From an uncultured Candidatus Saccharibacteria bacterium (lineage in GTDB: Bacteria; Patescibacteriota; Minisyncoccia; Phycocordibacterales; UBA9973): DNA of 64,000 nt. This document shows, piece by piece, positions 15,355 through 39,463 of this stretch (the first letter of the stretch is position 1; the number at the start of each line of letters is the position of its first letter). The notes beneath the pieces were generated by a model that worked only from the letters and a program-made list of their open reading frames with translations, was not told the DNA's origin and did not search any database. The DNA is taken from the NCBI GenBank assembly GCA_964441495.1, contig CAYTXV010000002.1, positions 9,168-73,167 on the forward strand, in the 5' to 3' direction. The position numbers were made by a program, and so were the translations under genes.

Positions 15355-17292
15355 TTATATGAATACCGTCCCAAACCCTACTTCCCCGGCACGTGTCTCT
15401 CGAGTGATGATCTCTTCGGGGATGTCGAGGAGGAACTCACTCGGAAGTCTGATGTCGCGCATACCATATATAGTACGCATGCTCGCGTAGGTGATATAGA
15501 GTTTGTGCCGTGCTCGAGTGACTGCGACGTACATGAGTCTGCGCTCTTCTTCGGCATCTGCGCCGGTTGCGCCCCTGTCTCTGCCGCTCGGGAACAGTCC
15601 TTGTTCGAGTCCAACGAGAAACACAACTGCAAACTCAAGCCCCTTTGCTGCGTGTATCGTCATGAGCTTGACTCCTTTTGCCTGCTCGAGGTTGTCTTGA
15701 TCGCTCATAAGTGTCGCCTCTTCGACGAGACGTTCAACACCGTCGATACTTGGGAGATGATCGTACCGTGTTGCAAGTGTGACGAGCTCGCCGAGGTTTT
15801 GCAAACGCTCCTCACCTTCTATCTTGTCGTCTTTGTATGCGCGCTCCATACCACTTATTTCGATGACATATTTGATCGTTTCAGAGACAGTGTGTGATTC
15901 GAGATACACCTTGATCTTTTCAAGTATCGCAAAAAACTCATCTACACCAACTTTTACCTTGCCGGTGAGTACTTCTTTGCCTGCCTGCGCAGGCAGGGCA
16001 AACAGTTTTGTGACGGTGACTTTGCCGATACCGCGTGCGGGTACGTTGATGATACGTTTGATATCAACAAGACTTTCTGGGTTGAGGCTCGCGCGGATGT
16101 ATGAGAGCACGTCTTTGATTTCTTTGCGTTCAAAGAACCGCACACCGAGTACTTGGTACGGTATGTGATATGAGAGAAATGCCTCTTCGAGTGCGCGTGA
16201 CTGCGCATTGGTGCGAAAGAGTATTGCGATGTCACTTGCTGCTACCCCACTATCGATGTGTTCGATACAACGCTCAACAACAAACGATGCTTCATCACTC
16301 TCATCATATGCGGTGTACATCGAGATGAGTTCGCCGTCCGCGTTGCTCGTGAAAAGGTTTTTGGGAGTACGGTAGTTGTTCTTGTTGATGATTTTGTTTG
16401 CTGCAGTGAGTACTGTTTTGGTTGAACGGTAGTTTTCTTCGAGTACGACGACAGTTGCTTCTGGGTAGTCGTGTTCAAACTCAAGTATGTTTTTGATATT
16501 GGCACCACGCCATGAGTAGATACTCTGGTCACTATCGCCAACCACACAGATGTTCTTTTTGTCTGCGGCGAGTGCGCGTGCGATACGATACTGCACTTCG
16601 TTGGTGTCTTGGTACTCATCGATGTGGATGTGAGACCACGTATTGTGGCACCATGTGCGTGCCTGATCGTTTTTCTCAAGGAGCTCAACTGTCTGCGTGA
16701 GGAGGTCGTCAAAGTCGAGTGCTTTTTGTGATACTTTGAGCGATCGATAGGCACGCCAGATACGCCCTGCCATTCGGTAGGATGGATTTGCTTCCCCTTC
16801 AAGCTCTTCAGGAGTTTGTGATGCATTTGCAGCACGGCTGATGATTGAGCGGATACTGCGCGGATCAGTTGTCTTGGGGTCTATCCCAAACGAAAGGAGT
16901 GCTTCTTTGACAAGTGACATACTGTCTGCGTCGTCAAGGATGGTAAATCGTGGTGCTGTGCCACCATATGCACCAAACTTACGGAGCAAAAACACTCCCA
17001 AACTATGAAACGTACTGATAAAGGGTACTTGCCCTGGTTCGATATGAGGAAGCTGGTGCATCATGTGTGAGATGCGTTCGCGCATTTCTTTGGCAGCCTT
17101 GTTGGTAAATGTCACTGCAAGGATCTGTGACGGGTGTACTCCGAGTGTGATGAGGTGCCCGATGCGGTGTACGATTGTTTTGGTCTTGCCCGCTCCCGCA
17201 CCTGCCACGATGAGGAGTGGTCCGTCAGTAGCAAGCACCGCTTTTTTTTGCGCATCATTGAGCCCCTGTGTAAAGTCTCGGGTAAGGTCCAT
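15355..17292 (-). CDS. uvrD: UvrD/PcrA-family ATP-dependent DNA helicase
   Basis: 645 aa with AGAGAGKTKT (Walker A), HIHIDEYQDTN (motif II) and C-terminal VAVTRARHKLYI. Confidence 0.9.
   Translation of the reverse strand: MDLTRDFTQGLNDAQKKAVLATDGPLLIVAGAGAGKTKTIVHRIGHLITLGVHPSQILAVTFTNKAAKEMRERISHMMHQLPHIEPGQVPFISTFHSLGVFLLRKFGAYGGTAPRFTILDDADSMSLVKEALLSFGIDPKTTDPRSIRSIISRAANASQTPEELEGEANPSYRMAGRIWRAYRSLKVSQKALDFDDLLTQTVELLEKNDQARTWCHNTWSHIHIDEYQDTNEVQYRIARALAADKKNICVVGDSDQSIYSWRGANIKNILEFEHDYPEATVVVLEENYRSTKTVLTAANKIINKNNYRTPKNLFTSNADGELISMYTAYDESDEASFVVERCIEHIDSGVAASDIAILFRTNAQSRALEEAFLSYHIPYQVLGVRFFERKEIKDVLSYIRASLNPESLVDIKRIINVPARGIGKVTVTKLFALPAQAGKEVLTGKVKVGVDEFFAILEKIKVYLESHTVSETIKYVIEISGMERAYKDDKIEGEERLQNLGELVTLATRYDHLPSIDGVERLVEEATLMSDQDNLEQAKGVKLMTIHAAKGLEFAVVFLVGLEQGLFPSGRDRGATGADAEEERRLMYVAVTRARHKLYITYASMRTIYGMRDIRLPSEFLLDIPEEIITRETRAGEVGFGTVFI
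15980..15997. repeat. 18-bp perfect palindrome CCTGCCTGCGCAGGCAGG, copy 1 (in frame in uvrD, encodes LPAQAG)
   Basis: Read directly from the sequence. The Leu codon begins at 15996, and (17292-15996) is divisible by 3. Confidence 0.95.
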
Positions 17293-17504
17293 ACGTCCGT
17301 AGAGTGTACCTGATTTATTGATAAACCAAAAATATCCTTTGTTTACAATGCTTTTGTGGGTATCTGCATCAGGGTATAACCTCTTGCGCTCGTCAAATCA
17401 CTCAAAAACAAGGTTTTTTTGGCAAAAATCTATTGACCATATGCTTTATATATTGTGATATCACAAACCTGCTCGACTTCTTGGTAAACTAGAAACCTAC
17501 CCGT

Positions 17505-18566
17505 ATGTTATCTACAGATTCATCGAGTCCCGCTCCCAAACGATTCAATAAACGATTTGGACACAACAAAAAGCGCGGACTCTCTATAGTACTTAGTGCC
17601 TTCCTCCTGTGTATCGCAGTGGGGTATCCACTCTACAAGGTGCTTTCCAAAGACGCAGGTGCTAACCAAACACAAGTCAAAGACGAAACAGTTGCTGTTG
17701 GTTCTGAATCAGAACTTGCAAACGATCAGCCTGCAGAAACAGAGCTTGCTACAGAAGATACGGCAACAATCACTACATATATAGTACAAAGTGGCGACAC
17801 CCTCTCTGGGATTGCAAGCAAGTTTGGCATCTCGGTCAACACGATCCGCTGGGCCAACGACCTCACCGAAAAGACCTCCAAAATCAAGCCTGGCGATGAG
17901 CTTGTGATCCTCCCTGTCTCGGGTATCGAGTACACAGTCAAAAAGGGCGACACTCTCTCTGGGATTGCTGCTCGGTACGATACTGACCAAGAAGATATCC
18001 TCAAATACAATGATGTTGACGCTGATGCGATCAAGGTTGGTATGAGTCTTATCATCCCGGGCGCTGAGCCGGTCAAAGCGAGTACCCCAAAGCAACCCTC
18101 AAAACCTGTAGCTACAGCACCAAAGCAGCAAGCAACACAAACAGCACCAACAAAAGTTGCACAAACAACAACTAGTGATGATAGTGATGAAAAACCAGAA
18201 ACAGATAGTGGATACGCTGTCCCTGTGAGCGGTGTGCTTACACAAGGTATCCACGATAGAAATGCAGTTGACTTTGGTGTTCCAACAGGTACTTCAGTCA
18301 AAGCATTCAAGAGTGGTGTTGCCAAAAGCTCTGGATACAACGGTGGGTATGGTTCATACATCGTGATCAACCACGCAGGAAGTTGTCAGACGCAGTACTC
18401 ACACCTTTCCAAAGTATCTGTGTCAGTTGGAGACACAGTGACGCAAGGAGAAGTGATCGGTCTTTCTGGAAACACTGGACGATCAACTGGTCCACACCTA
18501 CACTTCAACGTTCGCAACTGTGGTGGCAACCCATTTACCAAATACAAAATCGGTACACGATTCTAA
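17505..18566 (+). CDS. LysM-domain peptidoglycan hydrolase, peptidase M23 family
   Basis: 353 aa with a TM anchor, two LysM repeats (YIVQSGDTLSGIASKFGISVNTI..., YTVKKGDTLSGIAARYD...) and a C-terminal M23 motif (GNTGRSTGPHLHF). Confidence 0.85.
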   Translation: MLSTDSSSPAPKRFNKRFGHNKKRGLSIVLSAFLLCIAVGYPLYKVLSKDAGANQTQVKDETVAVGSESELANDQPAETELATEDTATITTYIVQSGDTLSGIASKFGISVNTIRWANDLTEKTSKIKPGDELVILPVSGIEYTVKKGDTLSGIAARYDTDQEDILKYNDVDADAIKVGMSLIIPGAEPVKASTPKQPSKPVATAPKQQATQTAPTKVAQTTTSDDSDEKPETDSGYAVPVSGVLTQGIHDRNAVDFGVPTGTSVKAFKSGVAKSSGYNGGYGSYIVINHAGSCQTQYSHLSKVSVSVGDTVTQGEVIGLSGNTGRSTGPHLHFNVRNCGGNPFTKYKIGTRF

Positions 18567-18615
18567 AACAAAATCTCCGCTCACTGCGGGGATTTTTCAT
18601 ACAAAAATAAGTTGG

Positions 18616-18825
18616 CTATACGAGTGCAGGGATTTTGAACTTGAGTTCGATCGGTTTTTTGTTAGCAATTTGTGTGCTCGCATGCAGTATCTCGATACCG
18701 AGCACTGTACCCTTTTTGTCGGTATCGACAACGAGCCGATCGTCGAGTTTGAGTGTGCGCGCAACAGTTCCCTTTTTAAAGGTGATATAGAGCGCATCTG
18801 CAATTTTGTCGTGGGTGATTTTCAT
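18616..18825 (-). CDS. DUF2283-family small protein (putative antitoxin-like partner)
   Basis: 69 aa. MKITHDKIADALYITFKKG... is the typical DUF2283 N-terminus. It overlaps the upstream DUF4258 gene by 4 nt. Confidence 0.65.
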   Translation of the reverse strand: MKITHDKIADALYITFKKGTVARTLKLDDRLVVDTDKKGTVLGIEILHASTQIANKKPIELKFKIPALV

Positions 18826-19037
18826 AATCGGTACGCAGTTATGATGACAGCTGTAGTATGGCTTTTCTTACAAATAATTTCAAGAGTGTAGTTTTTAAGT
18901 GATTTTCTTATGACATACAACCCTTCTATTCCGAGACGCTCACTTGTTGGATCAGAGAGTGCAGCCTTGATATCGCGTTGCAATATACTACGTTCTCTCA
19001 TCCGTTCTTTTGCGTGTTTTGTGTACACAATCCGCAT
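18822..19037 (-). CDS. DUF4258-family small protein (putative toxin-like partner)
   Basis: The internal start MRIVYTKHAKERMRERSI... (71 aa) begins at 19037, directly after the comM stop at 19039. The longer track ORF (to 19154) would overlap comM. Confidence 0.6.
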   Translation of the reverse strand: MRIVYTKHAKERMRERSILQRDIKAALSDPTSERLGIEGLYVIRKSLKNYTLEIICKKSHTTAVIITAYRL

Positions 19038-19038
19038 A

Positions 19039-20544
19039 TCAATCAATCTTTGGTCGGTACTGGAGCGCTTCAAGGATGTGCGGGAGTTCGACAGTTTCGC
19101 TTCCCTCAAGGTCTGCAATCGTGCGCGCAACTTTGATCGTACGCAGGTATACACGTGGAGAGAGTTTGAGTTTCTCCGCGTAGAGTTTCAGTTGCGCGCG
19201 TGCATCATCGCGAAGCGTTGCAAGTGTGTGTACTTCTGTTGGTGTGAGTTTGTTGTTAAGCTTCCCGTTTCTTTGCTGTTGTATGGCGCGCGCACGAGCA
19301 ACTGTTTCCCGGATCGTTTCACTTTCGCTGCGTGCGCGCGCCTCATGCAGTGTGTCGTACTCAACGTGTTGTACTGGCACCCACAGATCGATGCGATCCA
19401 TGATCGGTCCAGAAATCTTTTTGGTATAGCGAGCTATCTCCATACCGCTACAAACGCAGTGCTTGATCCCGCTTCCACGATACCCGCACGGACACGGATT
19501 CATCGCAGCAAGTAATAGAAACTCCGCAGGATATCTGACACTTCCTTTTGCGCGAGCGATGGTGATTGCGCCGTCTTCGATTGGTTCACGCAGTGCCTCG
19601 AGGACTCTTCGATCAAACTCTGGAAACTCATCGAGGTATAGTACGCCACGATGTGCGAGTGTGATGTCACCAGGACGAAGCGCTTGTCCACCACCGATGA
19701 TCGCAACATGTGATGCGCTGTGGTGCGGAGATCGCAGTGGTGCTGTGCCACCGAGTGCATCATTTATCAAACCTATCGATGAGTAGATCGTTGCGACTTC
19801 GAGAAACGTTTGTGGATCAAGGAGTGGCATGATCCCATGAAACGCTTTGGCAAGCATTGTCTTGCCGGTACCAGGTGGACCGTAAAGTACGATGTTGTGT
19901 CCACCTGCTGCAGCTATCGTGAGTGCACGCTTTGCTTGGAGTTGTCCGCGCACATCTCCGATGTCGACAGTGCTCGGTGTGAGTGTTGGTGTCGGAGGTG
20001 CATACATCGCTTCGTGTAACACAGATGCGCCAGAGAGGTGTGAAACAAGTGATGCAAGTGTCGGCACCAGATAGCACGTGATACCTTGCACAAGTGTTGC
20101 TTCGGTTTGATTTGTCTCTGGTATGTAGAGCTCGTGATACCCGTGTGCGATCGCCCACGCAGCGATCGAAAGTACTCCGCGCACAGGACGTACGTCACCG
20201 TTGAGTGCAAGTTCTCCGACAAATACTTTGTCTGATGGATCAAACACAAGCGCGTCACTTGCGCACAGGTATCCAAGTGCGATCGCAACATCGCAGTATG
20301 CACCTTCTTTGCGAAGTTCTGCCGGTGAGAGTGACACAATCACTTTGTGATTTTCTGCTTTGGGATTTTTGTCCAGACTATTACGTAGTGCACTCACGAC
20401 ACGCTCGCGAGACTCTTCCACACTTTTGTCTGGAAGCCCGACGATTTGAAACACATACAATCCGCGATTGATATCTGTCTCGACAACAACACCTGTTGCA
20501 CTCAGTCCCGAAAGCTGCGCGCTATTGATCCGCGAAAATGCCAT
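19039..20544 (-). CDS. comM: YifB/ComM-family Mg-chelatase-like AAA+ ATPase
   Basis: The N-terminus MAFSRINSAQLSGLSATGVVVETDI matches the family. Walker A is GPPGTGKTM and Walker B is VLYLDEFPEF. The track ORF begins 9 codons earlier, at 20571. Confidence 0.85.
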   Translation of the reverse strand: MAFSRINSAQLSGLSATGVVVETDINRGLYVFQIVGLPDKSVEESRERVVSALRNSLDKNPKAENHKVIVSLSPAELRKEGAYCDVAIALGYLCASDALVFDPSDKVFVGELALNGDVRPVRGVLSIAAWAIAHGYHELYIPETNQTEATLVQGITCYLVPTLASLVSHLSGASVLHEAMYAPPTPTLTPSTVDIGDVRGQLQAKRALTIAAAGGHNIVLYGPPGTGKTMLAKAFHGIMPLLDPQTFLEVATIYSSIGLINDALGGTAPLRSPHHSASHVAIIGGGQALRPGDITLAHRGVLYLDEFPEFDRRVLEALREPIEDGAITIARAKGSVRYPAEFLLLAAMNPCPCGYRGSGIKHCVCSGMEIARYTKKISGPIMDRIDLWVPVQHVEYDTLHEARARSESETIRETVARARAIQQQRNGKLNNKLTPTEVHTLATLRDDARAQLKLYAEKLKLSPRVYLRTIKVARTIADLEGSETVELPHILEALQYRPKID

Positions 20545-20595
20545 GAAACAATCATCGCAAATCGAGTTCAAGAAAAGTTCAAGATGGTGAAACAG

Positions 20596-20940: not shown

Positions 20941-20981
20941 GACTTAATAGTAAAACAACCCCTCAGTGTGAGGGGGATGTT

Positions 20982-21335: not shown

Positions 21336-21388
21336 GAGCGATATAGTAGCACGCCTGTCCCAAAGCACAATAGGGTTTTGCACACCAC

Positions 21389-22261: not shown

Positions 22262-22267
22262 ACTATG

Positions 22268-23131: not shown

Positions 23132-23203
23132 AGTGGAGACATCATACCACACCCGTGTCAAAAATGCAAGTACTCCCCTATACGTCGCACAATAGTTCCG
23201 CGG

Positions 23204-26558: not shown

Positions 26559-26585
26559 GCCCCGCAATATTGCGGGGCCATTTTT
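26559..26585 (+). terminator. intrinsic terminator
   Basis: 20-nt perfect palindrome gccccgcaatattgcggggc (26559..26578) followed by a T-rich run. Confidence 0.75.
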
Positions 26586-27695: not shown

Positions 27696-29207
27696 TTACT
27701 TACGAACGCCGTGTTTCATGTGTAACTTTCCAACTTCTGCCTCGTTTACTTTCTCCTTTGTATCTTTTGCCTTTTCTCCAAGTACTTTGAGGTCTTTGTC
27801 CTCGAGCTCGTCCAGATCTTTGGCTCGTTCAGTGAGGGTTTCGATAGTATTAAGGTTAGGGTTTTCGAGGACTTCTTCGAGAAGGGCGTGGAGTATCCAA
27901 CCCATACGGGGTCCCGGTTTCATGTGTAACGTTTGTATAAGGTAGGCGCCGTCTATCGCAAGTTGCGATACAGAGATCGGGTCGCGAAGCGCTTCTTCGA
28001 TCATTGCGTGGTATTTGCGCAGGCGATAGGGGGCTTCTGCCTTTTTCATACCGACACGGTCGCACTCGCGTACCTGCATCAGTGTCCAGATGTGCTCAGG
28101 ACCAACTTTTTGGATGATTCTTCGGACAGCAGAGAGGGTGATCTGCTCAGTATCTGAGAAAAACATATGGTTTCGCACAAGAGAGGTTACACGTGTAACT
28201 GTTTCACGTGAAAAGCGAAGCCTATCGAGTATCATCCGTGCCATACGAGCACCGACCACTTCATGCCCAAAAAAGGTGTATTTATCGCGCGATCGGTCAT
28301 ATCTGCGGGTTGCAGGCTTGCCGATGTCATGAAACAAGGCTGCGAGACGGACTTCCAGAGGATATCCTTTGTCTGCTGCATGCTGGAGTGCGTGCAGGAG
28401 GTGTTCATAAACATCGTATATATGGGCACCTTTTTGGTCGCACCCGATACCTTGCTGGAGTTCTGGGATGATGTGTTTGAGGAGTCCGGTCTTTTCGAGC
28501 AGGGCTACTCCGAAGCTTGGAGTAGGGGAATTGATGATTTTGACCAGTTCATCTCGGATACGTTCTCCAGATATTTGTGCCAGGAGGTCTGCATGTTTTG
28601 TGACAGCACCAAGTGTTTCATGTGTAACGGTAAACCCAAGTGTTGTGGAAAACCTGACTGCTCGGAGCATCCGGAGCGCATCCTCTTGGAAGCGTACCTC
28701 TGGGTAAAGGACACATTTGATAGATTTGTCCTTTATGTCTTTTTGTCCATTATACGGGTCTACAATAGTGTCCGAGATAGGATCCCAGGCGATTGCGTTC
28801 ATCGTGAAGTCTCGTCGCTCGAGGTCTTTGGTAAGCTCTGTTTCATATGAAACGCTATCTGGACGGCGATTGTCGCTATAGGAGCCTTCGGATCGGTAGG
28901 TGGTTATCTGTACAGTATTGTCCTGGTCAGGTGTTACACCTGCCTGCGCAGGCAGGCGTGAATCCTTGTCTGGAGGCATATTGAGCACGGTGACTGTTCC
29001 AAATGCATTTTCGTGTACTGTCTTGAGGGTTGGGAACAGTGCAACAACTTCCTCAGGGTGAGCATTTGTGGTGATGTCCCAGTCTTTGGGAGTACCACCC
29101 ATAAGGAGATCTCGAACACAGCCGCCAACCAGGTACGCCTCAAAACCCGCTTCTTGCAGGGTAGTGGTTACACGTGTAACAAATGAGGGTATTGATGAGA
29201 TATCCAT
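27696..29207 (-). CDS. cca: CCA-adding tRNA nucleotidyltransferase with a C-terminal HD domain
   Basis: 503 aa with GGCVRDLLMG..PKDWDITT, ...RRDFTMNA... and HD-domain residues (LFHDIGKP). Confidence 0.9.
   Translation of the reverse strand: MDISSIPSFVTRVTTTLQEAGFEAYLVGGCVRDLLMGGTPKDWDITTNAHPEEVVALFPTLKTVHENAFGTVTVLNMPPDKDSRLPAQAGVTPDQDNTVQITTYRSEGSYSDNRRPDSVSYETELTKDLERRDFTMNAIAWDPISDTIVDPYNGQKDIKDKSIKCVLYPEVRFQEDALRMLRAVRFSTTLGFTVTHETLGAVTKHADLLAQISGERIRDELVKIINSPTPSFGVALLEKTGLLKHIIPELQQGIGCDQKGAHIYDVYEHLLHALQHAADKGYPLEVRLAALFHDIGKPATRRYDRSRDKYTFFGHEVVGARMARMILDRLRFSRETVTRVTSLVRNHMFFSDTEQITLSAVRRIIQKVGPEHIWTLMQVRECDRVGMKKAEAPYRLRKYHAMIEEALRDPISVSQLAIDGAYLIQTLHMKPGPRMGWILHALLEEVLENPNLNTIETLTERAKDLDELEDKDLKVLGEKAKDTKEKVNEAEVGKLHMKHGVRK
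28186..28199. repeat. 14-bp perfect palindrome GTTACACGTGTAAC (copy 1), followed by palindrome TTTCACGTGAAA at 28202..28213
   Basis: Read directly from the sequence. Lies inside cca and encodes VTRVT. Confidence 0.95.
28939..28956. repeat. 18-bp perfect palindrome CCTGCCTGCGCAGGCAGG, copy 2 (in frame in cca, encodes LPAQAG)
   Basis: Read directly from the sequence. It overlaps the 15-bp palindrome CAGGTGTTACACCTG (28928..28942). (29207-28955) is divisible by 3. Confidence 0.95.
29167..29180. repeat. 14-bp perfect palindrome GTTACACGTGTAAC (copy 2)
   Basis: Read directly from the sequence. Lies in codons 10-14 of cca and encodes VTRVT in the same frame as copy 1. Confidence 0.95.
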
Positions 29208-29225
29208 AGGATATTAAGAATATAG

Positions 29226-29297
29226 TGCACCTACCAGGATTCGAACCCAGAATAACGGTTCCGAAGACCGCTGTGATATCCATTTCACCATAGGTGC
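29226..29297 (-). tRNA. tRNA-Arg (anticodon TCG), CCA not encoded
   Basis: Manual cloverleaf on the reverse complement: acceptor GCACCTA/TAGGTGC, anticodon arm GCGGT-CTTCGGA-ACCGT, T-loop TTCGAAT. The T stem has two G-U pairs. Confidence 0.75.
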
Positions 29298-29382
29298 GTA
29301 CCCGCACTATACCACTATTTATCCAACCAATAAAGTATCGTTGCAAAATACACAATCATGCGTATACTAGGGATGTCTAACC

Positions 29383-29453
29383 GCAGTCATAGTTTAGTGG
29401 TAGAACGACTCGTTGCCAACGAGTAGGTTGGGGTCCGATTCCCCATGATTGCA
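29383..29453 (+). tRNA. tRNA-Gly (anticodon GCC), CCA not encoded
   Basis: Acceptor GCAGTCA/TGATTGC, anticodon arm ACTCG-TTGCCAA-CGAGT, T arm TGGGG-TCCGATT-CCCCA. Confidence 0.85.
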
Positions 29454-29467
29454 CAAAATAGATCGAT

Positions 29468-29498
29468 ACAAAAAGACCGGGAAAACCGGTCTTTTTGT
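29468..29498. terminator. intrinsic terminator (bidirectional shape)
   Basis: acaaaaagaccgg-gaaaa-ccggtctttttgt forms a 13-bp stem flanked by A and T runs. Confidence 0.7.
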
Positions 29499-29648
29499 AT
29501 GAAACATGACTGTCTATTAGACAAAATGCGTCTAATATGGGGATAAAACTGTTATTTTTCAACAAAACTGTGGATAACTCGGGGTATAAGTGGGATAACA
29601 GACATCCTATAGACGTACTTTATCAGTCCTTGAACTCGATACAGTACG

Positions 29649-30011
29649 ATGGTACACGTGAAACGGTTTACTTCTCCAACACAAAAACGTGGCGCCCGTG
29701 GTGAAGCACTTGCAGTCGAGTTTCTCCAGAGAGAGGGTTTCACCATAGTCGCTCGAAACGTTTCAGGAAGCTATGGCGAGATAGATATCATCGCCAAAAA
29801 GGGTGGCGTGTACTACTTTTTTGAAGTAAAAGCAGGCAATCCTGCAACTGGTATACACCCCGCAGAAAACCTCACTCCTACCAAGATCCGCAAAGTCCTT
29901 GGCACAGTAGCGTACTACGCCATGATTCACCATATAGGGGAGTACAGAGTAGAAGGGGTCATTGTACTTATGGGGGACAATCCTTCTATATACCGAACAG
30001 AGCTTTTTTAG
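29649..30011 (+). CDS. yraN: YraN-family (UPF0102) endonuclease-like protein
   Basis: 120 aa with RGARGEALAVEFLQREGFTIVARN...GEIDIIAKKGGVYYFFEVKA. Confidence 0.8.
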   Translation: MVHVKRFTSPTQKRGARGEALAVEFLQREGFTIVARNVSGSYGEIDIIAKKGGVYYFFEVKAGNPATGIHPAENLTPTKIRKVLGTVAYYAMIHHIGEYRVEGVIVLMGDNPSIYRTELF

Positions 30012-30181: not shown

Positions 30182-30209
30182 GTCATAAAAATGCTAGCAT
30201 TTTTATGAC
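30182..30209. repeat. 28-nt perfect palindrome GTCATAAAAATGCTAGCATTTTTATGAC between the two tRNA-Pro genes
   Basis: Read directly from the sequence. Possibly a processing or terminator hairpin. Confidence 0.9.
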
Positions 30210-34187: not shown

Positions 34188-34190
34188 TAC

Positions 34191-34219
34191 AAAACCACCC
34201 TTCGATGAAGGGTGGTTTT
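34191..34219. terminator. bidirectional intrinsic terminator between convergent genes
   Basis: aaaaccaccctt-cgatg-aagggtggtttt. Confidence 0.75.
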
Positions 34220-34226
34220 GTAGTAA

Positions 34227-34592
34227 TCATTTGATTAGTTCGTTTATCTTGGTGATGACATCGTCGAGGGTGAAGTTGCTTTTGACCATGAAGTCTGCAG
34301 CACCTGCATCCATCACACGCTTCATCTCTACATCATCAGAGAGGTTTGAAAATACAATCACAGGGATGGCTTTTGTCTTTTCATCAGACTTGAGCTCTTG
34401 GAGGATAGTGTGTCCGTCTACGTCGGGGAGCATGAGGTCAAGGAGGATCACATCAGGGAGTCCTGCTGCAAGAGCTGCGTCAACCTCTCTTTTGGTTGTT
34501 GCACTTGCTACTTCAAAACCGCTCTGGGTGAGTTTTGCGCTTTCAAGGTTTTTTAAAAATGAATCGTCTTCGATGGTCAGTATCTTTTTCAT
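34227..34592 (-). CDS. single-domain response regulator (CheY-like receiver)
   Basis: 121 aa with KILTIEDD...PDVILLDLMLPDVDG...KAIPVIVFSN. No output domain. Confidence 0.85.
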   Translation of the reverse strand: MKKILTIEDDSFLKNLESAKLTQSGFEVASATTKREVDAALAAGLPDVILLDLMLPDVDGHTILQELKSDEKTKAIPVIVFSNLSDDVEMKRVMDAGAADFMVKSNFTLDDVITKINELIK

Positions 34593-34615
34593 ATGGGTAG
34601 AGTATAGCAGACTTG

Positions 34616-35314
34616 CTAGCCCAAGGGGAGGGCGATGGTAAATGTGGTTCCGTCGCTCGGGGTGCTGGTGCAGGTGAGGGTACCGCCATGGCGCTCGACG
34701 ATATGCTTGCTCGCATAGAGCCCAAGCCCAACACCGGGGTAGTCTCGGGCAGTTGTTGCTCGGAAAAACTTGGTAAAGAGGTTGCGCTGCTCGCTCGACG
34801 GTACCGTGATCCCGTGATCAGTAACACTCAGATACACCCTGCCATCATCCACGCGGAGGTCAACGACGATGTCGGTTCCTTTTGAACCATACTTGATCGC
34901 GTTTTCGAGGAGGTTGTGGATGACGATGCGGAGTTTGTCTGTATCTGCATGGACAATGATCGGTGCTTCGGGCGGCGCATAGCGGATATGCATGTCTTTG
35001 GCACTTGCTTCGCTTGTGAAGTCTTTGATGGATTCTTCGATCAGAGATGAAAACAAAAGCGGAGAGAGGGTATAGGCAACAGTAGAGCCTTCGGTTTTGA
35101 CCACATCCATCGTATCGTTGATAAGTCCAATCATGCGCTCAGTAGAGCCAGATGCTTGCGAGAGCATCGCACGCTGCGTTTCGGTCAGTGGGCCGAAGTC
35201 ATCCGCAAGGAGCATCTTGAACAGCCACTTCATCGCAGCGAGTGAGGTCCGCAGCTCGTGTGCCGACACGAGGAAAAAGTCGAGTTTGTCTTGAGGGTCT
35301 CTAGAAGAGTTCAC
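34616..35314 (-). CDS. cytoplasmic sensor histidine kinase (HisKA + HATPase_c only)
   Basis: 232 aa with the H-box FLVSAHELRTSL, the N-box HNLLENAIKY and the G-boxes DHGITV / GVGLGL. It has no TM segment and no sensor domain. Confidence 0.85.
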   Translation of the reverse strand: MNSSRDPQDKLDFFLVSAHELRTSLAAMKWLFKMLLADDFGPLTETQRAMLSQASGSTERMIGLINDTMDVVKTEGSTVAYTLSPLLFSSLIEESIKDFTSEASAKDMHIRYAPPEAPIIVHADTDKLRIVIHNLLENAIKYGSKGTDIVVDLRVDDGRVYLSVTDHGITVPSSEQRNLFTKFFRATTARDYPGVGLGLYASKHIVERHGGTLTCTSTPSDGTTFTIALPLG

Positions 35315-35347
35315 ATCTACAGTGTAGCATTCTGTGTATAAAAATAA

Positions 35348-35365
35348 CCCCCTTATCTAAGGGGG
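35348..35365. terminator. intrinsic terminator hairpin downstream of the 101-aa gene
   Basis: ccccctta-tc-taaggggg with A/T runs on both sides. Confidence 0.6.
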
Positions 35366-35390
35366 CTTTTGTACATAAAATATGTAGTTA

Positions 35391-35696
35391 CTATGCAGCA
35401 ACTACTCTTCCAATCAGATCTCTGGCCGCGCTCCAGTCGTTTTCGACATACAAAAATTTTGTTTCAGGACAGGATGTGCCAACCTGTTCGATAAAGTCTT
35501 TTGCGACCTGTTTGTCGATGTAATGAAAGGCGATAACCGCCGGTTTCTCATTTTTGACAATGTTGCACAACCCTTTTGCATTTGGTGGGTACTTTTTGAG
35601 CCGCTGCTTCGGGACGATCCCGGACATGGCATTTTTAATAGTTTTGGAGGTTGTGGATTTGCTCAATTTTGAGGAAATAATAAACACTTTTTTCAT
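35391..35696 (-). CDS. hypothetical protein
   Basis: 101 aa, basic N-terminus, no recognised motif. Bounded by hairpins at 35348..35365 and 35757..35780. Confidence 0.4.
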   Translation of the reverse strand: MKKVFIISSKLSKSTTSKTIKNAMSGIVPKQRLKKYPPNAKGLCNIVKNEKPAVIAFHYIDKQVAKDFIEQVGTSCPETKFLYVENDWSAARDLIGRVVAA

Positions 35697-35756
35697 AAAT
35701 AGAAAGAATTTAAGTTTCCAAATACATTACCATATCATTTCACTAAGTCAAACAAA

Positions 35757-35780
35757 CCCACCACCCGGGTGGGTGGTGGG
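35757..35780 (-). terminator. intrinsic terminator downstream of the 309-aa gene
   Basis: cccaccaccc-gggt-gggtggtggg. On the minus strand it is followed by tttgtttg. Confidence 0.6.
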
Positions 35781-35797
35781 GAAGGTTCATACTGAGT

Positions 35798-36727
35798 TTA
35801 TTTGTTTGTCTGAGCAAAGTCTGCACCAGGCATTTGCACAGTATTTTCTTTTTGCTTTTTTACTTTGACGAGGATCGCGTACTCACCATACTTGAAATCT
35901 TTACCCATCATGTTGTGTTCGTATCGGTTGATTTTCCCTGTAGGGTTAAATGTTGTGAAGTTTTCAATTGTTGCAGTGCCAATGTTGTCGTTGATGTTTG
36001 TATCTTGCGTATCGTCTGATTCGATATGCGCTGTATCGAGTGCCATACCGTACCCAATCTTTTCGGTAAGCACTTTTTGGTTTTTATTAAAAACTTCACG
36101 CAAATCATCTGAGCTTGCAAGTTCAAACCCAAGCTCTTTTGCGGCTTGTTTCATGTGTGCTGCTTTATTTTCTTCTGCATCATTTCCATCAAGTCCGATA
36201 AAGAAGTAATCATACTCTTTGTCATCTGAAGGTACACTGAGCGCTCCTTTGTACATAAGCCCGCCAACCTCTTTGTTTGCTTCGATGAATTTAAACTGTT
36301 CGGTTTTTGCTTTGGTAGAATCGCTCGGATTTGTTTCTACTGAAGCAGCCTTGCCGGTAGTAGTCGTTGCTACTGCCAATCCAAATATTGCAGCCCATTT
36401 CCTAAGCGCTTTTTTGAAGCCACTCGATCCTTTTTCGGGTGGATTAATATCTTCTGGAGGAGTTTGTTTTTCATGTGTAGCGCGGGTGTCAATATACAAT
36501 TCATCCTCCTCGATACCTTCTTGAAGCCTTTCAGATCCATCAGGCTTTTTTGCCATCGCGCGCTCAATCTCCTCGTTGATACTTGAGATTTGTTCTTCGC
36601 GAGCCTCCGGTGTTTCTATTGTTACCTCTTCTTGATTTTTGAGCGATTCTTTTATAGATTCGAGCGCTTCGTCATGTTGCTCTTTGTTTTCTACTGATGG
36701 TGTTGGGGGAAATTCTGCTTTGTTCAT
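35798..36727 (-). CDS. hypothetical protein with an acidic N-terminus and one TM helix
   Basis: 309 aa with WAAIFGLAVATTTTG as a TM or lipobox-like segment. It lies directly downstream of the VirD4-like gene. Confidence 0.5.
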   Translation of the reverse strand: MNKAEFPPTPSVENKEQHDEALESIKESLKNQEEVTIETPEAREEQISSINEEIERAMAKKPDGSERLQEGIEEDELYIDTRATHEKQTPPEDINPPEKGSSGFKKALRKWAAIFGLAVATTTTGKAASVETNPSDSTKAKTEQFKFIEANKEVGGLMYKGALSVPSDDKEYDYFFIGLDGNDAEENKAAHMKQAAKELGFELASSDDLREVFNKNQKVLTEKIGYGMALDTAHIESDDTQDTNINDNIGTATIENFTTFNPTGKINRYEHNMMGKDFKYGEYAILVKVKKQKENTVQMPGADFAQTNK

Positions 36728-36748
36728 ACCCTCACACTATAGCATGCA

Positions 36749-39463
36749 CTACTGAAATCGTGCCATGATCTCGGCTTCGACTTCCTCTTTAGGACGGCCG
36801 TACTTGAGGTATGAGAGCTCTTTGAGTTTCTCGGCAACAGTCGGGTTGCCCTGCGGAGGAAATGGGGTGACGGAGTTGAACGGCTTGGCAGGGACGCCAC
36901 CGACGAGCATTTTGATATAGCAGTTGAGGTTTTGGAGCTTGATGATGTCAGCTGGGGTAAAGACAGGTGCAAACTGCTGCTCAAACACCGCTGCATTCTC
37001 AGGTGAGACGCGGTGTACCACCATCGTGCCGACGTTTCCAAAGATTGCGTTTTTGATGTTTTCTTGGAGCTGTTCGATGTACTGATGGGCGACAGTGAGC
37101 GATAGGCGGTACTTGCGTGCTTCTGAGAGGATCGTCGAGATAGAGTCGGTGGTGACGTTCTGAAACTCATCGATGTAGAGATAGAAGTCGTTCACTGCTT
37201 GTTTGCCGACGATGTCCACACGAGAGAGTGCTGCCATCGTTATCTTGCCGACGAGGAGGAGGCCGATGAGGTTTGAGTTGATGTCACCAAGCCGACCTTT
37301 GGAGAGGTTCACAAGGAGGATTTTCTTTTCATCCATGATTTGGCGGAAGTTGAGTACGCTTTGTTGCTGCGCAACAACCGGGCGCATGATGTCGTTGGAG
37401 ATGAAGACATCAAACTTGTTGGTGATGTAGGGGACGAAGTTGGCAAGCGCACTCTCACCAGTTGTCTTTTCGGCATTTTGCCAGAACTGTTTGATGATCG
37501 GGTTTTTGCAGCGCTCAAGTTTCATATCGCGAAATGCTTTGTCAGAGAGGACGCGTCCGATCTCAAGGAGTGTCGAGCCAGATGCGGGGTCCTCCATCAC
37601 AAGTCCGCACGCATTGCGGAAGTACTGTTCAAACATCGGACCACCAGCAACCTTCATATCAAAGAGTTTGTTAAAGATCGCAAGGAGTTCGTTGATAACA
37701 AAGATCTTTTGCTCAGGGAAGCGCTCGTCGTACTCGAGCATGTTGAGCCCCATCGGACGCGCAGTATGTGCTGGATCAAAGTAGATGACGTCGTCGATGC
37801 GCTCAGGAGGGATGTTGGCAAGGATGTGATCGATATCGGTGCCGTGTGGATCGATGAAGCAGACACCATCACCGTTTTTGATGTCTTGGATAATCATGTT
37901 TTTGAGAAAGACGGTCTTACCAGTACCAGTCTGACCGATGACATAGCAGTGACGAACACGGTCTTCGCGGGCAAAGATAATCGGTGTTTGCTGTCCGCGG
38001 TATGTGTTGGTACCAAGTGTGATACCTGTCTGCGCAGGCAGGCCTGAACCTTGCGAAAAGGTGGGCGCGGGTGCACTTGCTGCAGAGGATTCTCGGAGTT
38101 CGGGTGCAGGAGTGATGCCGACGGGGAAATGAAAGAGTGTCGCGAGCTCGTCGATGTTGAGCGGAAACTGCGCATCTTGGCGAAGTGTACGAAATGTAAA
38201 GTCGCGGATTGTTTGGGGAAGCGCTTTGGCAGAGACGTCATACCAGACGAGTGAGTTGCCACCGACGAGTGCAAACTGCGCAAACGATGCCTTGATAGTC
38301 TGCAGGATGCTCGCTGCGCGAGTACTCGCTCCAGCAGTTGCGATGATGCGGATACCTGTACCGACAACCTGAGATTTGTTTTTGGTGTTCAACAGCTCAA
38401 GAGTACGCGTGTCGAGCGGCTTTGGTTCGTCGGACTTTTCTTCTTTGGGTGACTCAAAGAGTGAGAGAAATGTTTTGCCAAACTCTGCACCGATTGACGC
38501 GTTTGCTTCTTTGTAGAGCTCTTTGACGGTGGTACCAGGCGTTTGCGCACCTTCGGCGAGCTTGGTGTAGAGCGCGTTTGCACCCCACTGGTCGCGACTG
38601 ATCACAAACTGTATCGCTGCGCCTTCACCAGACTGTTCGAGTTGTGAAAGGGACGCGATGAGTGCTGCGAGTGGATCGTGTTCGAACTGTGCATCGGTGT
38701 TGAGCGGCAGGTAGTGATCTTCTTTGAGACCTGCGACACTTGCGGCGATGGCAGGACTTGCAGTGCCAAATATATTGTAGTCATCGACAACCTCATCGAT
38801 GATCGCAGTTGGGTAGTATGCGTGGACCAGCTTCTCAAATGTCGCGCCATACTCAGCTGGTACTGCTCCATAGAGCGCGATATCACGCGAACTGTTCTGT
38901 ACTGCAAGCTCAAGGACATAGTAGTCTCTATCGAGGAGTCCGATCATACCCGCATAGAACTGCTTCATCGCTTGGATGAAGCTTTTGAACGCAACATCAC
39001 CTGCTCCTGTCGGAAGTGTCACCGCAAAGAGTGAGTGACGAAGTTCACGTTCAAGCGTGCTACGGTCTTTGAGTCCCGGGATCGCGCCAACGGTGTGCAG
39101 GTACTGCACGAGGAAGCGGTGAAAGTCATCCGCAAGGTGTGGGTCGTTCATTGCTTGGACAACATCGAGCGCATTTTTTACTCCTTTGTCGAGCATGAGC
39201 GCAAAGAGTTCTTCTATCTTGTGGTCGTGTGTTTCAGGTTTGAGTCTTAGAATGATACGCTCTGTTTCATGAGGAGCGAGCTTTTGTGTTTCATGGATGA
39301 AGTTTGTTGCTTCGGCATGCGCGTACTGTTCGATCGTTGTTTTTGCAGCACTTTCGATGTTGGCATGAGGCACTGATTGCGCGATGTACTCTCGGTGTGA
39401 CTGGGCACCGAGCCACGCGATTTCTTGCTTTGGCGTTGCAAGTGTTTCTTTGGGAGCGAGCAT
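36749..39463 (-). CDS. VirD4/TraG/TraD-like coupling-protein ATPase with a large atypical N-terminal domain
   Basis: 904 aa. The C-terminal half has Walker A VIGQTGTGKT, Walker B FYLYIDEFQN and ARKYRLSLTVAHQYIEQL. The N-terminal ~470 aa have no TM helices and no family I recognise. Confidence 0.75.
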   Translation of the reverse strand: MLAPKETLATPKQEIAWLGAQSHREYIAQSVPHANIESAAKTTIEQYAHAEATNFIHETQKLAPHETERIILRLKPETHDHKIEELFALMLDKGVKNALDVVQAMNDPHLADDFHRFLVQYLHTVGAIPGLKDRSTLERELRHSLFAVTLPTGAGDVAFKSFIQAMKQFYAGMIGLLDRDYYVLELAVQNSSRDIALYGAVPAEYGATFEKLVHAYYPTAIIDEVVDDYNIFGTASPAIAASVAGLKEDHYLPLNTDAQFEHDPLAALIASLSQLEQSGEGAAIQFVISRDQWGANALYTKLAEGAQTPGTTVKELYKEANASIGAEFGKTFLSLFESPKEEKSDEPKPLDTRTLELLNTKNKSQVVGTGIRIIATAGASTRAASILQTIKASFAQFALVGGNSLVWYDVSAKALPQTIRDFTFRTLRQDAQFPLNIDELATLFHFPVGITPAPELRESSAASAPAPTFSQGSGLPAQTGITLGTNTYRGQQTPIIFAREDRVRHCYVIGQTGTGKTVFLKNMIIQDIKNGDGVCFIDPHGTDIDHILANIPPERIDDVIYFDPAHTARPMGLNMLEYDERFPEQKIFVINELLAIFNKLFDMKVAGGPMFEQYFRNACGLVMEDPASGSTLLEIGRVLSDKAFRDMKLERCKNPIIKQFWQNAEKTTGESALANFVPYITNKFDVFISNDIMRPVVAQQQSVLNFRQIMDEKKILLVNLSKGRLGDINSNLIGLLLVGKITMAALSRVDIVGKQAVNDFYLYIDEFQNVTTDSISTILSEARKYRLSLTVAHQYIEQLQENIKNAIFGNVGTMVVHRVSPENAAVFEQQFAPVFTPADIIKLQNLNCYIKMLVGGVPAKPFNSVTPFPPQGNPTVAEKLKELSYLKYGRPKEEVEAEIMARFQ
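38025..38042. repeat. 18-bp palindrome copy 3, one mismatch (CCTGTCTGCGCAGGCAGG), in frame in the VirD4-like gene, encodes LPAQTG
   Basis: Read directly from the sequence. (39463-38041) is divisible by 3. Confidence 0.95.

Follow-up and report, generated by a model that had tools for sequence, protein, structure and literature searches.

Three copies of an 18-bp palindrome

The window, meaning the whole stretch of 64,000 nucleotides analysed here, carries a perfect palindrome of 18 bp, CCTGCCTGCGCAGGCAGG (hereafter the 18-mer), in two exact copies and one variant copy, each of them inside a protein-coding gene. The host genes, the copies and the site that is split by the second copy are the following.

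15355..17292, minus strand: host gene 1, UvrD/PcrA-type helicase (Pfam UvrD-helicase 3e-83, UvrD_C 1e-67)
15980..15997, no strand assigned: copy 1, exact, in uvrD/pcrA; minus-strand reading L-P-A-Q-A-G
27696..29207, minus strand: host gene 2, CCA-adding enzyme with HD domain (Pfam PolyA_pol, PolyA_pol_RNAbd, HD)
28932..28938, no strand assigned: left half of the split parS-like site, TGTTACA on the plus strand
28939..28956, no strand assigned: copy 2, exact, in cca, reading LPAQAG; at the centre of an in-frame parS-like palindrome
28957..28963, no strand assigned: right half of the split parS-like site, CGTGAAT on the plus strand; boundary ambiguous by 1 nt
36749..39463, minus strand: host gene 3, VirD4/TraG-like type IV coupling ATPase (Pfam TrwB_AAD_bind, T4SS-DNA_transf, TraG-D_C, all weak), whose orthologues carry the name TraM recognition domain protein
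38025..38042, no strand assigned: copy 3, C5T variant CCTGTCTGCGCAGGCAGG, in the VirD4/TraG-like gene; minus-strand reading LPAQTG

On the whole, a search of the window confirms the preliminary description of this DNA, which had reported two exact copies and one single-mismatch copy at these positions. The mismatch of copy 3 lies at 38029, and beyond the three copies the window has no match with up to 3 mismatches. The description had also held that such recurrence is not expected by chance, and this agrees with our estimate of about 0.01 copies in the window against the 3 seen, none of 100 shuffles having given 3. All three genes read the palindrome in one shared frame (c CTG CCT GCG CAG GCA GG), encoding LPAQ(A/T)G as had been noticed, and the flanked peptides are A-LPAQAG-K in UvrD, R-LPAQAG-V in the CCA enzyme and G-LPAQTG-I in the VirD4-like protein. 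The remark that all three genes lie on the minus strand is true as well; since a perfect palindrome is identical on either strand, however, this coincidence carries no information for the two exact copies. The length of the 18-mer is a multiple of three and stop codons are absent from every frame on both strands, so that an ORF is never broken by its insertion. According to the annotation, no mobilising enzyme (transposase, RAYT or GIY-YIG) is encoded in the window.

Insertion sites and empty orthologues

In an alignment of 119 uvrD orthologues, the closest ones (about 20, with 76-84% identity) read KLFA-KEEL without the insert. At the DNA level, the closest syntenic relative has TTT GCA AAA GAA where the window has TTT GC[18]C AAA GAA, copy 1 splitting the codon GC|C and giving GCC...GGC. 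The comparison of filled and empty DNA thus demonstrates an insertion of exactly 18 bp, by which target bases are neither duplicated nor lost. The 18-mer is absent, at up to 4 mismatches, from the 23-kb syntenic contig of this relative (84% amino acid identity), and the parS site interrupted by the 18-mer in the window is intact and in frame in the cca gene of the relative. At this cca position, the relative L151 has the uninterrupted GTT ACA CGT GTA ACA (VTRVT), and an independent assembly (L149) carries the 18-mer at the same cca site as the window, with one synonymous difference. Within ±30 nt of the cca site, the window matches L149 at 44 of 54 positions and L151 at 37 of 52. A local recombination patch carrying the cca allele is at most weakly supported, as the difference of L149 over L151 vanishes by ±150 nt. 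In the VirD4-like gene, the copy lies in a length-variable linker that exceeds the linker of the nearest orthologue (P0242, 81% identity) by 6 aa, which bears out its earlier placement at a linker. Among 360 orthologues, copies of the 18-mer occupy six different positions and are patchy. Presence/absence among orthologues, which the preliminary description had proposed to examine, is therefore seen as clean 18-bp differences in uvrD and cca and as 6 additional residues in the VirD4-like linker. The turnover of copies is thereby shown to be fast relative to the divergence of the host genes, and with such quick gain and loss close relatives differ in presence/absence.

A test for surface loops had further been proposed, and in two of the proteins the location of the insert agrees with such loops. 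The UvrD insert follows the GIG motif, in a part of the 2B domain that is variable. For the CCA enzyme, the AlphaFold model places residues 85-90 in a coil loop (residues 76-97) flanked by two strands, with pLDDT below 50 at residues 82-91, and the loop holding the insert is missing from solved homologues. The same loop had been described as about 15 aa longer than in other CCA enzymes. It is indeed longer, exceeding the solved enzymes by 17-18 aa, but only 6 of these residues are supplied by the 18-mer; the rest is lineage-specific and contains the in-frame parS site.

The cca gene in fact carries a cluster of parS-like sites, and parS, read in frame, gives the VSRET or VTRVT that most cca orthologues encode. 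The copy in cca hereby reveals parS centromere sites encoded in frame within a housekeeping gene. Across orthologues, the parS-like sites keep their position and vary in sequence, and the 18-mer shows the opposite pattern. A protein-binding site, one of the alternatives raised at the outset, is accordingly disfavoured in its position-specific form, because the positions of the 18-mer are unconserved and those of the parS sites in the same gene are conserved. Three things had escaped the preliminary description, namely the split parS site in cca, the sharing of the 18-mer across the entire CPR radiation (Patescibacteria), and the link to the tRNA-Gln/GIY-YIG cassette described below.

Reading frame and translation of the insert

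Most CPR copies are located within long ORFs. In ORFs of at least 300 aa the three frames are used 37, 6 and 4 times, i.e. the LPAQAG frame accounts for 37 of 47 copies (p=2e-10), and in non-coding DNA the three frames are even (14/11/11). The other two frames read PACAGR or CLRRQ. The strong bias indicates, in the absence of transcript data, that a genic 18-mer is kept in the mRNA and translated as part of the protein. Selection is shown to retain, for the most part, copies whose surface segment is disordered or variable in length and whose reading is the mild LPAQAG, not PACAGR or CLRRQ.

One hexapeptide common to three proteins might also mean that LPAQAG is a conserved peptide motif, or that the palindrome is an artefact of assembly or sequencing. 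We give almost no credence to either. The peptide motif, which had been listed as an alternative, is refuted, since LPAQAG is missing from orthologues and the 18-mer is also present in intergenic and tRNA-derived DNA; moreover, its codons are the same regardless of the GC content of the genome. As for an artefact, the frame bias would be unexpected, the independent assembly L149 shares the cca site with one synonymous difference, and the matches stem from many independent studies.

Target features and the tRNA-Gln/GIY-YIG cassette

The landing sites are demonstrably unrelated: the 18-mer is found in protein genes, between genes, in redundant copies of tRNA-Gln and in the middle of other palindromes. 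At about 75-78% of sites, non-coding DNA included, position -1 is a purine and position +1 a pyrimidine, and no conserved flank is seen beyond these two positions. The 18-mer as part of a longer repeat or MITE is ruled out, the flanks being unrelated. Centres of longer perfect palindromes are over-represented as targets (3/127 vs 0.13%, p=6e-4), and further palindrome or loop targets are the parS centre, the anticodon loop and the T loop; a general preference for palindromic flanks is not significant across sites (p=0.07) and concerns a small subset only. There is no target-site duplication at the uvrD, cca or tRNA-Gln sites, and no transposase is seen near copies of the 18-mer. A tblastn search for Y1/RAYT over about 1 Mb of loci and the window, and not over whole genomes, gives nothing at E<0.4; with an IS200 TnpA sequence as query this is a weak test. 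The gene that recurs beside the 18-mer encodes a GIY-YIG protein and not a Y1 (HUH) transposase. In the 0.95 Mb around copies, no full-length transposon with matching ends is found, and 9-mer half sites occur singly only rarely and never as a pair. Rfam finds no known RNA family covering the intergenic copies, only tRNAs nearby. Among the 2,821 ORFs within 1.5 kb of sites, all-against-all BLAST reveals no dominant family of neighbour genes, the only recurring gene context being dnaX/tRNA-Gln/GIY-YIG.

This context takes the form of a cassette recurrent in dozens of contigs: tRNA-Gln(1-10)-18mer-tRNA-Gln(11-25)-GIY-YIG-tRNA-Gln. The tRNA-Gln is split exactly between nt 10 and 11 at 5 genome loci and in 54 metagenome contigs, a set that was collected by exact pattern and thus has an ascertainment bias. 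A GIY-YIG ORF follows at least 31 of 57 tRNA-Gln junction sites, and in the cassette its gene lies 4-30 nt downstream of the 'master' copy of the 18-mer. Some tRNA-Gln sites adjoin HNH-like endonuclease genes, recognised by motif and without a Pfam match. Among the genome loci, only three cassette GIY-YIG genes adjoin the 18-mer and six other GIY-YIG genes do not, and GIY-YIG genes also adjoin tRNA genes without the 18-mer; the link may therefore reflect a single old insertion that a homing cassette has taken with it. A GIY-YIG protein of 80 aa has no obvious DNA-binding domain.

Two further explanations are to be weighed here. Firstly, the 18 nt could be intron-like and be removed from the RNA, in the manner of the short tRNA introns of archaea at non-canonical positions, so that interrupted tRNA-Gln genes, and perhaps mRNAs, stay functional. 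About 11 contigs have full-length tRNA-Gln genes interrupted solely by the 18-mer at nt 10/11, some interrupted genes carry a second copy in the anticodon loop or the T loop, and, with the 18 nt removed, ARAGORN recognises a normal tRNA-Gln. However, in every contig that extends far enough, an uninterrupted tRNA-Gln of identical anticodon is present at a distance of 25-370 nt, which makes the interrupted copies redundant, and several of these lack a proper 5' acceptor strand (L038, L188). Judged from the sequence, a bulge-helix-bulge cannot arise from a perfect, blunt hairpin whose exon flanks vary, and the strong frame bias in ORFs is that of a translated insert. We regard an intron-like nature as very unlikely.

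Secondly, the palindrome could be a repair scar, either the footprint of an excised transposon with terminal inverted repeats starting CCTGCCTGC, or the filler of a double-strand break, in which identical 3' tails (...CCTGCCTGCGC) on both break ends would anneal via GCGC, the break possibly coming from a homing endonuclease at nt 10/11 of tRNA-Gln. A sequence followed by its own reverse complement is, by inference, what the joining of two identical inverted ends should leave; the insertion is clean and blunt, without duplication; and the recurrent tRNA-Gln site adjoins GIY-YIG or HNH-like endonuclease genes. Even so, we consider a scar distinctly unlikely, as the DNA around copies shows neither a full-length element with such ends nor paired half sites, and the supposed footprint lacks a flanking target duplication. 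The uninterrupted tRNA-Gln beside each cassette would, besides, stay cleavable, and we know of no end-healing enzyme that adds a defined sequence of 9-11 nt.

Spread and constancy across genomes

Overall, the exact 18-mer is found in at least 120 genome blocks (8 kb each), at least 71 of which are labelled Patescibacteria, the labels being the submitters' own. The density expected at 43% GC is 0.003 per Gb. Among the matches listed, the Patescibacteria blocks cover nearly all classes and 32-63% GC, and some Bacteroidota have the same sequence. The codons are identical throughout this range of GC content, and synonymous positions and non-coding DNA are likewise exact. Decayed copies are few, the 0.95 Mb around copies having 127 exact matches, 6 with one mismatch and none with two or three. 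From 12 secondary copies in the same 0.95 Mb, the density is roughly estimated at about 10 per Mb, no complete genome having been measured. The C5T variant of copy 3 recurs elsewhere, in the locus L118 and as the peptides LPAQTG in P0075 and LSAQAG in P0036, P0226 and P0239; it also occurs in 4 viral contigs vs 1 for a control variant. The 18-mer has 25 matches in viral contigs, mostly in phage contigs of 58-67% GC, which are uninformative because a GC-rich 18-mer has a higher chance frequency at such GC content. A literature search gave no description of the 18-mer, the exact sequence being unmatched, and nothing relevant on CPR palindromes.

Such constancy raises the explanation that the 18-mer is a genomic signal that works anywhere (a DNA-uptake, recombination or nucleoid-associated site, for example), to which a conserved dimeric protein binds and whose exactness selection maintains, its genic location merely reflecting compact genomes. 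A perfect 9+9 palindrome fits a dimeric binder; the sequence is near-exact, few copies being degenerate, and identical across phylum-level lineages. In two loci (L037, L042) the 18-mer is intact despite decay of the tRNA-derived flanks, the genome encodes the competence genes comM and comEC, and the three sites of the window lie inside 22 kb around the parS cluster. On the other hand, site positions are not kept even with respect to the closest syntenic relative, copies originate by an 18-bp insertion and not by substitution, a parS site is destroyed by one of the copies, half sites seldom occur alone, and the density is far under the roughly 1 per kb of known uptake sequences. A signal of this kind is in our view unlikely; in any case, a sequence that spreads by insertion is a mobile element, whatever its function.

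A probable very small mobile element

Our preferred reading, to which we assign a probability of roughly 0.7, is that the 18-mer is a very small, non-autonomous, perfectly palindromic mobile DNA insertion element. It looks to be among the smallest mobile DNA elements known. The suggestion of an in-frame selfish palindrome, similar to the Rickettsia palindromic elements (RPEs) and much shorter, is hereby supported by clean presence/absence, patchy positions, identity at the DNA level and frame bias.

The constancy of the sequence across lineages points to recognition by a conserved trans-acting protein. We infer that this protein may handle the palindrome or its hairpin and cut at the blunt boundaries of the 18-mer (R^CC...GG^Y), and that the excised 18-mer would be joined into breaks or hairpin loops elsewhere. 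That a palindrome-specific nuclease moves the 18-mer is likewise an inference, for which the small GIY-YIG nuclease of the cassette is the most concrete candidate, its enzymology not being shown. It is possible, though doubtful, that the 18-mer and the tRNA-Gln-linked GIY-YIG form a new minimal 'cut-and-ligate' system, CPR-wide and of no known transposase family. In such a system the blunt palindrome of 18 bp would be cut out by a dimeric nuclease and pasted by host ligation into breaks or hairpin loops, and hexapeptide loops would keep being added to core proteins.

Several points count against this reading, besides the limits of the GIY-YIG link named above. The trans-acting enzyme is undemonstrated and none is encoded in the window, one identical 18-mer over such deep lineages is unusual for a selfish element, and the copy number per genome is seemingly low.

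If this is confirmed, no mobile element smaller than the 18-mer would be on record from essential genes of bacteria, and the 18-mer would be unusual in that one exact sequence is kept across lineages as deep as the classes of Patescibacteria. It would then be a recurrent source of loop insertions, and hence of protein length variation in reduced CPR genomes, as well as an easy sequence marker by which very recent changes of the genome could be followed in uncultivated populations. A conserved activity that handles palindromes or hairpins, so far sought by nobody, would also be implied, with the tRNA-Gln/GIY-YIG cassette as a concrete and testable candidate.

Comparison with known systems

Several classes of short repeats are excluded by their own criteria. 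As a MITE, the 18-mer would need a target-site duplication and a parent element sharing its ends; the duplication is absent at the uvrD, cca and tRNA-Gln sites, and no such parent is seen in the 0.95 Mb around copies. The DNA uptake sequences (DUS/USS) have a density of about 1 per kb, originate by point substitution and have abundant single, non-inverted copies; the 18-mer, with 3 copies in 64 kb, an origin by 18-bp insertion and rare solitary 9-mers, does not meet this criterion. The parS/ParB criterion of conserved position and variable sequence is met by the parS-like sites in cca and not by the 18-mer.

Concerning inserts handled at the RNA level, a length of 18 nt cannot accommodate a group I intron, and there are no bulges in the blunt hairpin. 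The tRNA introns of Thermoproteales are reportedly transposing sequences of about 16-25 nt with a bulge-helix-bulge, spliced by EndA. They are similar as near-identical short inserts at several non-canonical tRNA positions, sometimes more than one per gene; they differ in that the tRNA-Gln interrupted by the 18-mer is redundant beside intact ones and that no BHB is possible. The mobile GC clusters and the hairpin inserts called byps in yeast mitochondria are organellar, 30-55 nt long and of diverse sequences, and the byps are bypassed by the ribosome. The likeness is that of short GC-rich palindromic inserts in AT-richer genomes, sometimes coding and optional between strains, whereas the frame bias of the 18-mer, unlike a byp, indicates ordinary translation.

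REPs co-evolve with their RAYT and differ between species. REP/REPIN sequences are short GC-rich hairpins dispersed in trans by RAYT, the gene of which is flanked by copies, and REPs are extragenic, imperfect, with a conserved 5' tetranucleotide, hundreds of copies and species specificity (PMC3116915). The 18-mer beside the GIY-YIG gene at tRNA-Gln resembles the REPs flanking a RAYT gene, although GIY-YIG belongs to a different nuclease superfamily, and the criterion of extragenic location and high copy number is unmet, the 18-mer being mostly in long ORFs with about 12 secondary copies per 0.95 Mb.

The small dispersed repeats (SDRs) of heterocystous cyanobacteria are said to be hairpin-forming, dispersed units of 21-27 nt, mostly intergenic, with clean insertions and mutual nesting, and with no encoded function and no known transposase. 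A hairpin unit below 30 nt, clean insertion and nesting in other palindromes are all met by the 18-mer, in kind only; the phylum and the sequences are different, and SDRs are not known to be kept in frame in core genes or to be identical across phyla. The RPEs are reportedly palindromic selfish DNA lying in frame in housekeeping and RNA genes of Rickettsia, about 100-150 bp long, imperfect and confined to that genus, with copies that diverge. The 18-mer has no sequence relation to them and is 18 bp long, perfect and superphylum-wide, so that the length criterion of an imperfect hairpin of 100-150 bp is unmet. It resembles the RPEs in being in frame, translated, tolerated at protein surfaces and patchy among orthologues, and it meets their criterion of in-frame presence/absence.

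Copies of the palindrome in the window

The window carries three copies of an 18-bp palindrome, the 18-mer, each within a gene:

15980-15997: CCTGCCTGCGCAGGCAGG, exact, in the UvrD/PcrA helicase ORF (15355-17292, minus strand)
28939-28956: CCTGCCTGCGCAGGCAGG, exact, in the ORF of the CCA-adding enzyme with HD domain, cca (27696-29207, minus strand)
38025-38042: T for C at 38029, in the VirD4/TraG-like coupling ATPase ORF (36749-39463, minus strand)

The coordinates, the mismatch and the LPAQ(A/T)G reading given in the preliminary description are all reproduced, the translations with their neighbouring residues being A-LPAQAG-K, R-LPAQAG-V and G-LPAQTG-I, and no further match exists in the window at up to three mismatches. 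Shuffles give an expectation of 0.01 copies, which bears out its view that three copies are not expected by chance. It also remarked that all three hosts are minus-strand genes reading the palindrome in one frame; only the second part is informative, since a perfect palindrome is identical on both strands and codon phase alone counts.

The window is ordinary chromosome of Paceibacteria type, with T4SS-like genes, ksgA, uvrD, comM, a Xer-like recombinase, rpsO, cca, UPF0102, RNase Y, clpP, tig, nusA, ppa, tpiA, pgk, recJ, rnhA and comEC, and contains no transposase, RAYT or GIY-YIG nuclease gene. A type IV secretion-like set (SLT transglycosylase, TraG/VirB4-like ATPase, PrgI and the VirD4-like coupling protein) lies among large unannotated ORFs at 563-13975 and at 36749-39463; its synteny in the closest relative suggests a conserved part of the chromosome rather than a recent island. 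Three further perfect palindromes of 20 bp, GCCCCGCAATATTGCGGGGC (26559-26578), TAAAAATGCTAGCATTTTTA (30186-30205) and ACCCCTTCAGCTGAAGGGGT (40071-40090), are single-copy and probably terminator hairpins. A 452-aa ORF (53610-54968) has weak Hint/intein-like matches (Hom_end_hint, Vint) and is otherwise unannotated.

Insertion into host genes

The closest relative is a 23-kb contig (Logan SRR16308651) with the same gene order from cca to prgI and about 84% amino acid identity, in which no copy of the 18-mer is found even with four mismatches allowed. For UvrD (alignment, n=119), the window has KLFA-LPAQAG-KEVL against KLFA-KEEL in about 20 closest orthologues (76-84% identity). The relative's DNA reads TTT GCA AAA GAA and the window's TTT GC[CCTGCCTGCGCAGGCAGG]C AAA GAA, a clean 18-bp gain with neither target duplication nor deletion. 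The relative's cca has GTT ACA CGT GTA ACA, a 14-bp palindrome that resembles the ParB-binding parS and translates in frame to VTRVT. At this place the window shows TCA C[18 bp]GT GTA ACA, with the 18-mer occupying the centre of the parS-like site. Among 360 orthologues fetched, LPAQAG, LPAQTG or LSAQAG is also present at UvrD residues 86 and 510 and at VirD4-like residue 150, and recurs patchily at two window positions (P0014, P0075 and P0036 in cca; P0239 in UvrD). The orthologue comparison suggested earlier thus reveals presence and absence, and demonstrates that turnover of the 18-mer is faster than divergence of its host genes.

All three window sites are in exposed segments of variable length. 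As first surmised, the cca copy lies in an extra loop, between two β-strands, which is missing from solved CCA enzymes and is coil in AlphaFold (pLDDT <50 at residues 82-91), and the VirD4-like copy lies in a variable linker, 6 aa longer than the nearest orthologue's. In UvrD the copy falls within domain 2B, in a variable part that follows the GIG motif.

Distribution and variants

A scan for the exact 18-mer, with one genome per species and 8-kb blocks, gives at least 120 blocks. Among the matches listed, 71 are Patescibacteria by submitters' titles, from many classes (WWE3, Microgenomates groups, Paceibacteria/Parcubacteria groups, Saccharibacteria, Dojkabacteria, Uhr-, Kaiser-, Nomura-, Woese-, Gottesman-, Shapiro- and Magasanikbacteria, among others), with G+C content of 32 to 63%. 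The chance density at 43% GC is about 0.003 per Gb, so the excess is enormous. Also among the matches listed are Bacteroidota MAGs, including one Sphingobacteriales bin with the 18-mer on at least six contigs, where it lies between genes, inside larger repeats or terminator-like hairpins; some MAGs labelled Gammaproteobacteria (40-44% GC); and scattered high-GC genomes, where chance matches are plausible. The sequence is the same across the CPR radiation. The 0.95 Mb fetched around the genome matches contain 127 exact and six single-mismatch copies, whereas copies with two or three mismatches are absent. That the 18-mer is an artefact is refuted.

The variant C5T, which is the window's third copy, encodes LPAQTG or LSAQAG depending on the strand. 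Independent occurrences of C5T are seen in one other locus (L118) and five orthologues (P0075, P0036, P0087, P0226, P0239). It matches 4 viral contigs, whereas a control variant matches 1 and the exact 18-mer 25, and it represents a mobile subfamily or else a mutational hot spot. Other lineages have diverged 30-36-nt inserts at the same cca and UvrD sites (for example RLPAEALAKEG, APSIAEALAGEG):

cca orthologues: L121 (about 1240-1290), L122, L148
UvrD: P0165, P0167, P0182, P0192, P0213, P0223, P0232

Their peptides are of RLPAEALAKEG or APS[IV]AEALAGEG type and their ends resemble those of the 18-mer; at the cca site both orientations are seen, starting GCTTGCCCG (compare GCCTGCCTG in the 18-mer). 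The two positions are permissive hot spots, and these inserts may be older relatives of the 18-mer. A second GC-rich perfect palindrome, TCCGCCAGCTGGCGGA, is present in six unrelated loci not selected for it (L066 2079; L082 1715, 7273; L097 7450; L105 4962; L107 5738; L112 5470) and absent from the window. It is mostly non-coding, often centred in longer palindromes, and 40-65 nt from the 18-mer in three loci; it may be a sibling element.

Reading frame, flanks and folding

Taking the longest ORF spanning each of 127 sites, the frames in ORFs of at least 300 aa are LPAQAG 37, PACAGR 6 and CLRRQ 4 (p=2e-10), against 14/11/11 in ORFs below 100 aa, presumed non-coding. The bias is confined to long ORFs, and therefore the 18-mer has no intrinsic frame. 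Copies inside genes are, judging by this bias, translated and filtered by selection on the encoded peptide, their persistence depending on frame and loop location. With a length divisible by three and no stop in any of the three frames, an insertion truncates no protein. The alternative raised earlier, that LPAQAG is a conserved peptide motif, is refuted by orthologues without the insert and by non-coding copies in all three frames.

Beyond position -1, usually a purine, and position +1, usually a pyrimidine (about 75-78%), the flanks have nothing in common. The purine/pyrimidine pattern also holds at non-coding sites and in other frames, which points to a target or boundary preference at the DNA level. 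The 18-mer alone is computed to fold into a 7-bp stem with a GCGC loop (-6.5 kcal/mol as DNA). Overall, extension of the hairpin by the flanks is not significant (p=0.07), most flanks being non-palindromic. Perfect palindromic arms of at least 6 bp occur at 3 of the 127 sites (L065, L069, L077) versus 0.13% of control junctions (p=6e-4), and the parS centre as well as the anticodon and T loops of tRNA-Gln copies harbour further 18-mers; insertion thus seems to favour, or to be better tolerated at, hairpin tips or palindrome centres.

The parS-like sites as internal control

Seven parS-like palindromes (GTTWCAYRTGWAAC) lie in and around cca (27712-29665), at 27712, 28186, 28200, 28614, 28839, 29166 and 29650. 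Six of the seven match the parS consensus with up to three mismatches (0.54 expected), and several are in frame as VSRET, VTRVT or VSYET; no ParB-family (ParBc) domain is found among the window ORFs scanned with Pfam. In orthologues from other contigs these sites keep their position and vary in sequence, as expected of a functional binding site. The 18-mer shows the reverse, invariant in sequence and unstable in position, which argues for a mobile sequence and against a position-specific binding site. The insertional origin, the absence of conserved positions and the low density all count against a selected signal able to work anywhere.

The tRNA-Gln context

At five genome loci tRNA-Gln-derived sequence is split by the 18-mer precisely between nt 10 and nt 11, and a metagenome scan for that junction gives 57 sites on 54 contigs. 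At least 31 sites have a cassette form: tRNA-Gln nt 1-10, the 18-mer, nt 11-25, then, after a gap of 4-30 nt, the start of an ORF for a GIY-YIG protein of about 80 aa (Pfam-confirmed for representatives), and an intact tRNA-Gln about 280-300 nt downstream. The 10-nt 5' piece has more than a dozen versions across contigs and equals the start of the local intact tRNA in about 25 cases; at one locus an HNH-like ORF replaces GIY-YIG. This cassette is widespread in CPR, 3' of dnaX (L027 1725-2105; L110; L038; L157-L210), and tandem redundant tRNA-Gln copies have up to two palindrome insertions. The cassette looks like a homing-endonuclease system targeting tRNA-Gln.

About 11 full-length tRNA-Gln genes have the 18-mer as their only interruption, and ARAGORN calls normal tRNA-Gln after its removal. 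In three interrupted genes the anticodon loop holds another exact copy; in a different three the additional copies are diverged and lie just after the anticodon (L182), in the anticodon arm (L203) or in the T loop (L180). Where contigs allow, an uninterrupted tRNA-Gln with the same anticodon adjoins, so the interrupted genes are redundant and splicing is unnecessary. This redundancy and the frame bias in ORFs speak against removal of the 18 nt at the RNA level. L037 and L042 keep an intact 18-mer between decayed flanks of tRNA origin, which have changed at 2-3 of 10 and 2-5 of 13-16 positions. The tRNA-Gln context makes up about 4% of genome matches, the expectation for one 'master' locus per genome with 10-25 copies, which is arithmetic and not proof. 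Elsewhere in the fetched loci GIY-YIG genes are not adjacent to the 18-mer, and they also occur beside tRNA genes without it.

Inferred mobility and comparison with known systems

On the whole, a discrete 18-bp palindrome has been gained by clean insertion at many unrelated sites. We infer that a conserved trans-acting activity would recognise the palindrome or hairpin and mobilise it. If a blunt duplex or hairpin were excised and ligated back in elsewhere, this would be in keeping with blunt boundaries that show no duplication and with the preference for R^Y steps and hairpin tips. The best candidate mobiliser, by inference and with considerable doubt, is the GIY-YIG nuclease whose gene accompanies the tRNA-Gln copy. 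A transposon footprint or break-repair filler is disfavoured, since the 0.95 Mb around copies shows no parent element and its solitary half sites are rare and never paired.

A literature search finds neither the sequence nor a description of the element, which we rate among the very small palindromic mobile repeats. Like Rickettsia palindromic elements (RPE), to which it was at first likened, it is in-frame, tolerated and patchy, and the selfish reading gains support from clean insertion, patchy orthologues and frame bias, although it does not meet the RPE size. It resembles cyanobacterial small dispersed repeats in being very small, nested and without transposase, and would resemble REP/REPIN in pairing a hairpin with a nuclease gene that acts in trans and is flanked by copies. 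However, it lacks the duplication and parent element of MITEs, the extragenic location of REPs, the density and origin by substitution of uptake sequences, and the positional conservation of parS-type sites. For the Y1 enzyme of REPs, a weak tblastn test with an IS200 TnpA query gives nothing at E below 0.4 in about 1 Mb of fetched loci and the window. Unusual are its 18-bp length, perfect symmetry, open frames and residence in core genes, together with its identity across phylum-level lineages and its linkage to a tRNA-Gln/GIY-YIG cassette.
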